Shown here piece after piece: positions 24,700 to 25,288 of a stretch of DNA of 64,000 nt. The notes below the pieces were generated by a model that was not told the DNA's origin, did no database searches, and saw only the letters and a list, made by a program, of their open reading frames with translations. The DNA comes from a virus (lineage: Duplodnaviria; Heunggongvirae; Uroviricota; Caudoviricetes), in IMG/VR virus record IMGVR_UViG_2913167280_000003, positions 27,299-91,298 of that record; one strand, given 5' to 3'. Within the stretch, counting starts at the first letter, position 1. Each line of letters starts with the position of its first letter. The position numbers and the translations under genes are program-made.

Positions 24700-25032
24700 T
24701 TAGTTACCGCTGATAGCGCGGTTGTAGTCATTGACGTTGCGATTCTTCCTGTTAATCCCCATCAGCATCGTTTCTGTATCGAGGATATAGGCTGGCAGAT
24801 CATCAAAATATTCACTGCTAAACTCTGGCATCCTACACATAAACGCACTTTTGGGGGCAGGGTGGTTAACCTTTGTCGGCGTCGGCGTTAAATTCGCTGA
24901 TCGACTCCCGGAGCAACCGCTGAGTGTCAGCAGGAATGCGCTGGCGAACACTACCTGACGCAACCAGTTGTTTCTGAACTTCAGCTTTTCGTTCCATTTG
25001 TCTGTCTGCATACTTCGCTTGTTCTGATTCAT
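24700..25032 (-). CDS. lipoprotein with lipobox (LLTLSGC), o-spanin-like; start codon uncertain
   Basis: Alternative-frame ORF overlapping the 3' end of gene 24866-25288; lipobox L-T-L-S-G-C followed by Pro/Thr-rich region. Confidence 0.4.
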   Translation of the reverse strand: MNQNKRSMQTDKWNEKLKFRNNWLRQVVFASAFLLTLSGCSGSRSANLTPTPTKVNHPAPKSAFMCRMPEFSSEYFDDLPAYILDTETMLMGINRKNRNVNDYNRAISGN

Positions 25033-25288
25033 TTTTCACTTCCTGGCTGTGAAAATGTTGATCCGCTTTATTCATCGTCTCAATGGTCTGGTTAAGATCA
25101 ATGATTGACTTATCGCGCTCCTTAACAGCCTGATCAAGGCTGCCAATTTTCTCCAAGGCTTGCTTTAACTGATAACGTTCCCATGCAAACCCAGCACCAA
25201 CAAGTGCGCAAATCAGGACAAGAACACCAGCAACAGCAAGTTTCTCCTTCAAAGACAAAGCTGTTTTTAACGTTGAAAAAAACGACAT
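24866..25288 (-). CDS. membrane-anchored coiled-coil protein, i-spanin-like (140 aa)
   Basis: N-terminal TM (LAVAGVLVLICALVGAGFAW) followed by charged helical region; overlapped by lipoprotein ORF in another frame. Confidence 0.45.
   Translation of the reverse strand: MSFFSTLKTALSLKEKLAVAGVLVLICALVGAGFAWERYQLKQALEKIGSLDQAVKERDKSIIDLNQTIETMNKADQHFHSQEVKNESEQAKYADRQMERKAEVQKQLVASGSVRQRIPADTQRLLRESISEFNADADKG

Follow-up and report, generated by a model that had tools for sequence, protein, structure and literature searches.

Two overlapping genes lie between the plasmid replicon and the baseplate genes of a P1-like phage, and the question they raise is what a membrane-anchored helical protein and a lipoprotein encoded in another frame of the same DNA do together. 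They were studied in a stretch of 64,000 nucleotides (hereafter the window), in which the gene order is repA, oriR with its iterons, upfA, mlp, ppfA, upfB and upfC. With 95.9% nucleotide identity, the region corresponds to positions 62854-65118 of P1, which hold ppfA and mlp, and, judged by its sequence, the window belongs to a P1-like phage-plasmid. Phages break the outer membrane at lysis by means of a complex known as the spanin. The features described below indicate that ppfA and mlp very probably encode a two-component spanin pair of overlapped architecture.

This spanin assignment is correct, already known and not new. In P1, ppfA and mlp have been described as partially overlapping spanin genes (Bednarek 2022, PMC9025707), in a text that swaps the i- and o- labels; the identification, made from predicted features, is credited there to Summer 2007. 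P1 (gp064) and P7 (Upf62.7/Upf62.4) are entered as 'ovl' two-component spanins of a family 'P1' (Kongari 2018 Table S1). As early as 2004, the P1 record described mlp as a 'membrane lipoprotein precursor... possibly involved in regulation of lysis (by homology)', and the name ppfA stands in that record for 'possible periplasmic function'. RefSeq labels mlp 'Rz-like spanin', and the pair appears as Rz-like spanin or Rz/Rz1 in several P1-like GenBank records. The original prediction that P1-type annotation usually leaves these positions as genes of unknown function is thus right in part: ppfA is only 'PpfA' in RefSeq and mlp is often missed, but lysis or spanin labels exist in the 2004 record, in RefSeq and in both publications. 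PpfA/Mlp would complete the P1 lysis set together with the holin LydA and the SAR-endolysin Lyz, and has been catalogued since 2007.

The window pair and the ppfA-mlp pair of P1 and P7 (gp064/gp063 in P1; Upf62.7/Upf62.4 in P7) are the same genes. Compared with P1, PpfA is 94.3% and Mlp 95% identical, and the lengths of 140 and 110 amino acids are equal. The overlap and the lipobox LLTLSGC are likewise shared, and in each case the pair stands between repA-oriR-upfA and upfB-upfC. The few substitutions that distinguish the window from P1/P7 fall, for example, at residues 6, 9, 11, 26, 28 and 32 of Mlp and at V19/A20, Y39, L45 and I63 of PpfA, and none of them changes a signal.

Both genes are encoded on the minus strand, which the original prediction had not specified. 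The i-spanin gene ppfA occupies 24866..25288 and encodes 140 amino acids, as defined by the ORF and by homology to P1 PpfA. Its ATG at 25288 is preceded at a distance of 5 nt by the Shine-Dalgarno sequence AGGAGG (25294..25299, minus strand), read from the sequence and marked at the same site in Kongari 2018 Table S1. The o-spanin gene mlp lies at 24700..25032 in the +1 frame of ppfA and encodes a 110-aa precursor of a predicted 71-aa mature lipoprotein. Over the 167 nt shared by the two genes (24866..25032, minus strand), the DNA encodes both PpfA residues 86-140 and Mlp residues 1-55, and mlp runs a further 166 nt beyond the ppfA stop. A membrane-anchored helical protein gene at 24866-25288, overlapped in another frame by an ORF with the lipobox LLTLSGC that extends past its stop, had been proposed at the outset; the coordinates of the former are exact, and the latter is the +1-frame ORF just described.

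The properties of PpfA are those expected of an i-spanin. The Kyte-Doolittle profile has a 19-residue maximum of 2.61 at residues 17-35 (LAVAGVLVLICALVGAGFA), the sole hydrophobic segment of the protein, and the predicted transmembrane helix LAVAGVLVLICALVGAGFAW is accordingly assigned to codons 17-36 (25181..25240, minus strand). The N-terminal flank of this segment carries a net charge of +2. PpfA is presumably a type II inner-membrane protein with a predicted N-in/C-out orientation. The periplasmic domain is taken to begin at E37 in Kongari 2018 Table S1. The periplasmic part of PpfA, about 104 amino acids, is highly charged (36% charged residues) and has no cysteine. An AlphaFold2 model built from a 12-sequence alignment has a mean pLDDT of 70 and consists of a helix at residues 13-110, a break containing G/P at 111-119 and a second helix at 120-137. 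In the sequence, heptad a/d occupancy is 7 of 8 around residues 43-75. The model thus points to the predominantly alpha-helical periplasmic domain that defines an i-spanin, and agrees with the helical protein first proposed.

Mlp carries the corresponding o-spanin signature. Its predicted signal peptide of 39 amino acids (24916..25032, minus strand) comprises an n-region of residues 1-26 with a net charge of +5, the h-region VVFASAFLLT and the lipobox residues L-S-G. The lipobox L-S-G-C is encoded at 24913..24924 on the minus strand, and Cys40 (codon 24913..24915) in LLTLSG|C is the predicted site of lipidation and cleavage. Residue +2 is a Ser, and Mlp is therefore predicted to be free of the Asp signal for retention in the inner membrane. 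A signal peptidase II lipobox with its Cys and no Asp at +2, the features that characterize o-spanins, are accordingly both present in the predicted protein. Cys40 is invariant across the family alignment, as is C66, the one periplasmic Cys besides that of the lipobox; C66 could form a homodimer disulfide, as in Rz1. The mature protein of 71 amino acids is 8% Pro. An AlphaFold2 model of Mlp, with a pLDDT of 52, was too poor for use.

The signal peptide of Mlp is atypically long, with an n-region of 26 residues. Curators have remarked of the P1-family o-spanin that a 39-aa signal is too long, that the start is perhaps different and that LipoP gives no hit (Kongari 2018 Table S1). Across the family, the composition of this long cationic n-region (net +5 to +7) is kept as its sequence drifts, and the region is a +1-frame read-out of the conserved charged helix of PpfA. 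A usable start in the lipoprotein frame, on which the original prediction hinged, is present as a conserved ATG with a Shine-Dalgarno sequence: AGGAAG at 25039..25044 on the minus strand, inside ppfA and 6 nt before the ATG at 25032..25030, a site also marked for P7 in Kongari 2018 Table S1. Among all relatives compared, this upstream ATG with its Shine-Dalgarno sequence is the only conserved start, and it is the best start for mlp; a second start is also possible.

Two internal starts were considered as alternatives. An ATG at codon 8 of mlp lacks a Shine-Dalgarno sequence and is not conserved. A TTG at codon 24 likewise lacks a Shine-Dalgarno sequence and is not universal among relatives: the codon is TTG in the window and P1, ATG in three contigs (L008-L010), an Arg codon in JK004 and absent in L013. 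Codon 24 aligns with Met1 of LysC of phage P2. A Tat-type signal, suggested by the 'TRRN' of divergent relatives, was rejected, for some 20 residues separate its RR from the h-region and neither the window nor P1 has it.

An ORF in an alternative frame may arise by chance, in which case only a C-terminal piece of 46-65 amino acids, or nothing, would be translated from mlp. Many records do call only a 46-aa fragment without the lipobox, or nothing at all, and full-length Mlp is rare in public data, where a cluster of 43 members contrasts with more than 1000 PpfA sequences. Overlapped o-spanins are, however, known to escape annotation, as 196 of 528 did. A strict six-frame scan of the 64-kb window found the mlp site as its only lipoprotein-type signal, as compared with a mean of 0.13 sites expected by chance from 30 triplet-shuffled windows. 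The +1 ORF, its ATG and Shine-Dalgarno sequence (within one codon) and the lipobox in the form LLTLS[GA]C are kept in P1 and in Cronobacter phage JK004. ORF, start and lipobox also occur in three P1-like Logan/ENA contigs whose PpfA is only about 60% identical; the PpfA proteins of two of these are named Salmonella and Klebsiella by NCBI. All three features persist in P0101 (LLTLSAC) and P0109 (LLSLSSC), the most distant full-length relatives from an exhaustive HMM search, and in divergent relatives the Shine-Dalgarno sequence is AGGAGG or AGGAAG, placed 6-9 nt before the ATG. The overlap layout, in which the +1 gene starts inside ppfA and ends past its stop, is kept in all relatives found.

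The pattern of substitution adds to this comparison. In the segment that encodes mlp alone, substitutions at the first, second and third mlp codon positions number 0/0/6 relative to P1 and 9/7/29 relative to L010. Because substitutions are biased to third codon positions, purifying selection acts on the mlp frame in the non-overlapped half of the gene. Within the overlap, substitutions occur at ppfA position 3, which is mlp position 2, and the PpfA frame is the better conserved, with identities to distant relatives of about 74% for PpfA and about 50% for Mlp. In the relative L007 the overlap is shortened by an in-frame deletion of 6 nt, which leaves both frames open. Homology to P2 LysC moreover covers the signal peptide, the lipobox and the mature N-terminus. 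Taken as a whole, the comparative data effectively refute a chance origin of the lipobox ORF, which has next to no probability left, and mlp can be treated as a gene.

L010, an ENA contig, deserves separate mention. Its mlp (3254-3589) encodes the lipobox LLTLNAC, with an Asn at -2 that falls outside the usual [LVI][ASTVI][GAS]C. Its PpfA (P0054) is named Klebsiella aerogenes by NCBI, and an upfA-like gene is absent downstream.

The relationships of both proteins point to known spanins. Positions 3-137 of the 143 in phrog_89, 'Rz-like spanin', are matched by PpfA at 2e-23; this match could be circular in part, should P1 PpfA belong to the group. Mlp matches phrog_30284 (1e-73) and phrog_456 (5.6e-5), both likewise annotated 'Rz-like spanin'. 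The P2 spanin proteins fall into the same groups, LysB into phrog_89 (6e-61) and LysC into phrog_456. For the distant relatives of PpfA, Rz-like spanin is the only named function among their top-rank PHROGs. Mlp is 37% identical to P2 LysC over 68 amino acids (BLASTP, E=2e-8), in an alignment that includes the h-region, the lipobox, a Pro/Thr-rich N-terminus and a conserved C-x-M-P motif. Mlp scores 14.4 bits against the NCBIfam LysC model NF038368 (relatives 18.9-19.2), below the cut-off of 27. Homology of Mlp and LysC is supported despite this sub-cut-off score by the BLASTP E-value and reciprocal PHROG matches, and Mlp is related to LysC but belongs to a separate family, phrog_30284.

The link between the i-spanins is looser. 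PpfA and P2 LysB gave no significant match by BLASTP, nor did hhalign with the 12-sequence PpfA alignment, and because of this the shared PHROG is what connects PpfA to P2. Against the NCBIfam LysB model TIGR03495, PpfA reached 17.7 bits (E=0.0034; cut-off 92.75). Pfam returned nothing meaningful for PpfA or Mlp, and no Rz/Rz1 model at E<=1. BLASTP against lambda Rz and Rz1 aligned short stretches of low complexity, at non-significant E-values of 0.67 and 0.008.

P2 has the same arrangement as the window, with an o-spanin gene that begins within the i-spanin gene, in the +1 frame, and ends beyond the i-spanin stop. P2 LysB (141 aa) is nearly the length of PpfA (140 aa) and has phrog_89 in common with it, whereas Mlp has about 23 extra N-terminal residues relative to LysC. 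Furthermore, lysB/lysC lie within the P2 lysis cassette, unlike the P1 pair, which is about 43 kb from lyz. Lambda Rz/Rz1 follow the same logic, a type II inner-membrane helical protein with an outer-membrane lipoprotein in the +1 frame. Mature lambda Rz1 has 40 amino acids and is Pro-rich, and lambda Rz has two periplasmic Cys. PpfA, in contrast to Rz, is devoid of periplasmic Cys, and lambda Rz1 is fully embedded in Rz, whereas mlp extends past the ppfA stop. The PHROGs also differ: 13 and 3198 for lambda, 89 and 30284/456 for the window pair. The pair is accordingly a small family of its own, with P2 LysB/LysC as distant relatives and lambda Rz/Rz1 as analogues.

The PpfA family is tiny, with 34 representatives from the exhaustive HMM search, and a PpfA search of genome contigs returned near-identical loci only. 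Four further candidates (P0107, P0111, P0115 and P0116) are long repetitive proteins with weak matches in 6-7 separate stretches each, and are unlikely relatives.

Every sequence-level feature of the overlapped i-spanin/o-spanin layout is therefore found at this locus, as the original prediction held. Its location is less usual. Spanin genes typically, though not obligatorily, lie in a lysis cassette, and ppfA/mlp do not. Relative to the other lysis genes, the pair has been called 'yet another unlinked operon' (Bednarek 2022, PMC9025707): in P1, lyz is at 20325-20882 and mlp/ppfA at 63354-63942, about 43 kb apart. The 64-kb window encodes no Lyz and no LydD. Directly upstream of the pair is upfB (25328..26173, minus strand), preceded by upfC (26125..26409, minus strand), which encodes a PAAR motif at 26.0 bits in Pfam against a 27-bit cut-off. 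UpfC is the spike-tip protein and UpfB the trimeric 'tripod' of the P1 baseplate (2026 cryo-EM study). Both upfB and upfC were scored non-essential by CRISPRi although they encode baseplate proteins.

The order upfC-upfB-ppfA-mlp is kept in all P1-like relatives examined. Downstream, 15 nt past the upfA stop, a terminator-like hairpin with a 9-bp GC-rich stem and a T-run is found on the minus strand (24261..24281), between upfA and the oriR DnaA box/iteron region. The hairpin is the probable end of a upfC-upfB-ppfA-mlp-upfA transcription unit, and likely shields the plasmid origin from read-through. The pair is thus probably co-transcribed with the baseplate genes upfC and upfB, and not with the lysis cassette. 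Because these baseplate genes lie directly upstream and the terminator-like hairpin follows upfA, late co-expression of the pair with virion genes is plausible. No late-promoter-like motif modelled on P1 LPlyz was found on the minus strand at 24700-26700, and a simple scan of the minus strand gave no consensus sigma-70 promoter. For the leftward upfC operon, no promoter is annotated in P1 or was detected by simple scans.

Two observations concern the flanks of this unit. A C1 repressor operator, ATTGCTCTAATAAAT, which corresponds to the Odmt/Op68 site of P1, is found at about 26488-26505 in the divergent upfC-uhr intergenic region. At the other end, the oriR/incC iterons next to repA (23995-24270) give rise to spurious short repeat-derived ORFs on both strands, such as MCAGGKMMCAGGKKMCADG, which are not genes.

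The tail-gene neighbourhood might suggest that PpfA and Mlp belong to an entry apparatus, co-expressed with the PAAR-like UpfC and with UpfB, and that they aid membrane piercing or DNA ejection instead of lysis. The conserved order of the four genes, their apparent membership of one transcription unit that terminates after upfA, and the proposal that the baseplate components UpfC and UpfB form a membrane-piercing apparatus are all in keeping with such a role. Cryo-EM, however, assigned almost all virion proteins, and neither PpfA nor Mlp is listed among them. The homology points to LysB/LysC, and proximity to tail genes is not peculiar to P1, for in P2 lysB and lysC also stand immediately before the tail genes R and S. 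A function in entry is accordingly very improbable.

It has been considered that P1-family o-spanins have a conserved, unusually long (37-39 aa), strongly cationic (+5 to +7) signal peptide dictated by the overlap, or else an internal start at codon 24, and that either way the pair is expressed from a baseplate-spike operon and not from a lysis cassette. This generalization is doubtful as it stands. If true, it could mean distinct control of the amount or timing of the o-spanin, or a dual-start arrangement.

By analogy with Rz/Rz1 and LysB/LysC, PpfA would insert N-in/C-out into the inner membrane. After export and lipidation on Cys40, Mlp would be cut by signal peptidase II and taken to the outer membrane by the Lol pathway, a destination predicted because the residue at +2 is Ser and not Asp. 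The periplasmic domains of the two proteins would then bind each other through the peptidoglycan mesh. Destruction of the peptidoglycan by the holin LydA and the SAR-endolysin Lyz would then allow the complexes to collapse and to fuse or disrupt the outer membrane, and lysis would thereby be completed.

Knock-down experiments bear on this role. In a published CRISPRi study, the efficiency of plating was 0.24/0.19 for mlp and 1.3/1.2 for ppfA, and both genes were scored non-essential for plaques; lambda Rz, by contrast, came out as essential there. In shaken cultures spanins can be dispensed with (Bednarek 2022, PMC9025707), and the CRISPRi result neither proves nor excludes a conditional spanin phenotype.

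Another possible role is that of a prophage-expressed, non-lytic outer-membrane lipoprotein that acts in exclusion or fitness, comparable to lambda Bor or T5 Llp. Under this explanation, PpfA would be an unrelated periplasm-facing membrane protein and the overlap a matter of compact packing. Such a role would fit a pair that is unlinked to the lysis cassette and adjoins the plasmid replicon repA/oriR, before whose ppfA the P1 record predicts sigma-70 promoters and not a late promoter, and whose knock-down causes no plaque defect. Spanin defects are, however, conditional under laboratory conditions (Bednarek 2022, PMC9025707). Mlp is homologous to the P2 o-spanin LysC, PpfA and its distant relatives match Rz-like spanin PHROGs as the only named function at top ranks, and all relatives found, even those barely detectable, couple an i-type and an o-type gene in a +1 overlap. 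A non-lytic lipoprotein is therefore an improbable explanation, and the spanin pair remains the preferred assignment for ppfA and mlp.

The practical consequence concerns annotation, as automatic gene callers truncate or miss mlp in most P1-like records. Where a gene is called, it is in many records only a C-terminal fragment of 44-65 amino acids that lacks the signal peptide and lipobox. Examples of truncated calls are 957-1097 in L002, 2958-3092 in L004 and 3449-3589 in L008 and L009; one such fragment is still labelled 'Rz1'.

A further peculiarity of public data is a 'PpfA-Mlp fusion' of 193-195 amino acids, which makes up at least eight clusters (P0005, P0011, P0017, P0021, P0030, P0044, P0049 and P0043). 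In these fusions, found for the minus-strand region 24866-25036, the frame switches from ppfA to mlp at a different point of the overlap in each, as would result from a 1-nt deletion. Most of them derive from Logan read assemblies, and they may be sequencing errors or reflect genuine spanin decay in resident plasmid-prophages. In two of the clusters the switch occurs in the A5 run (25036..25032) that leads into the mlp ATG.
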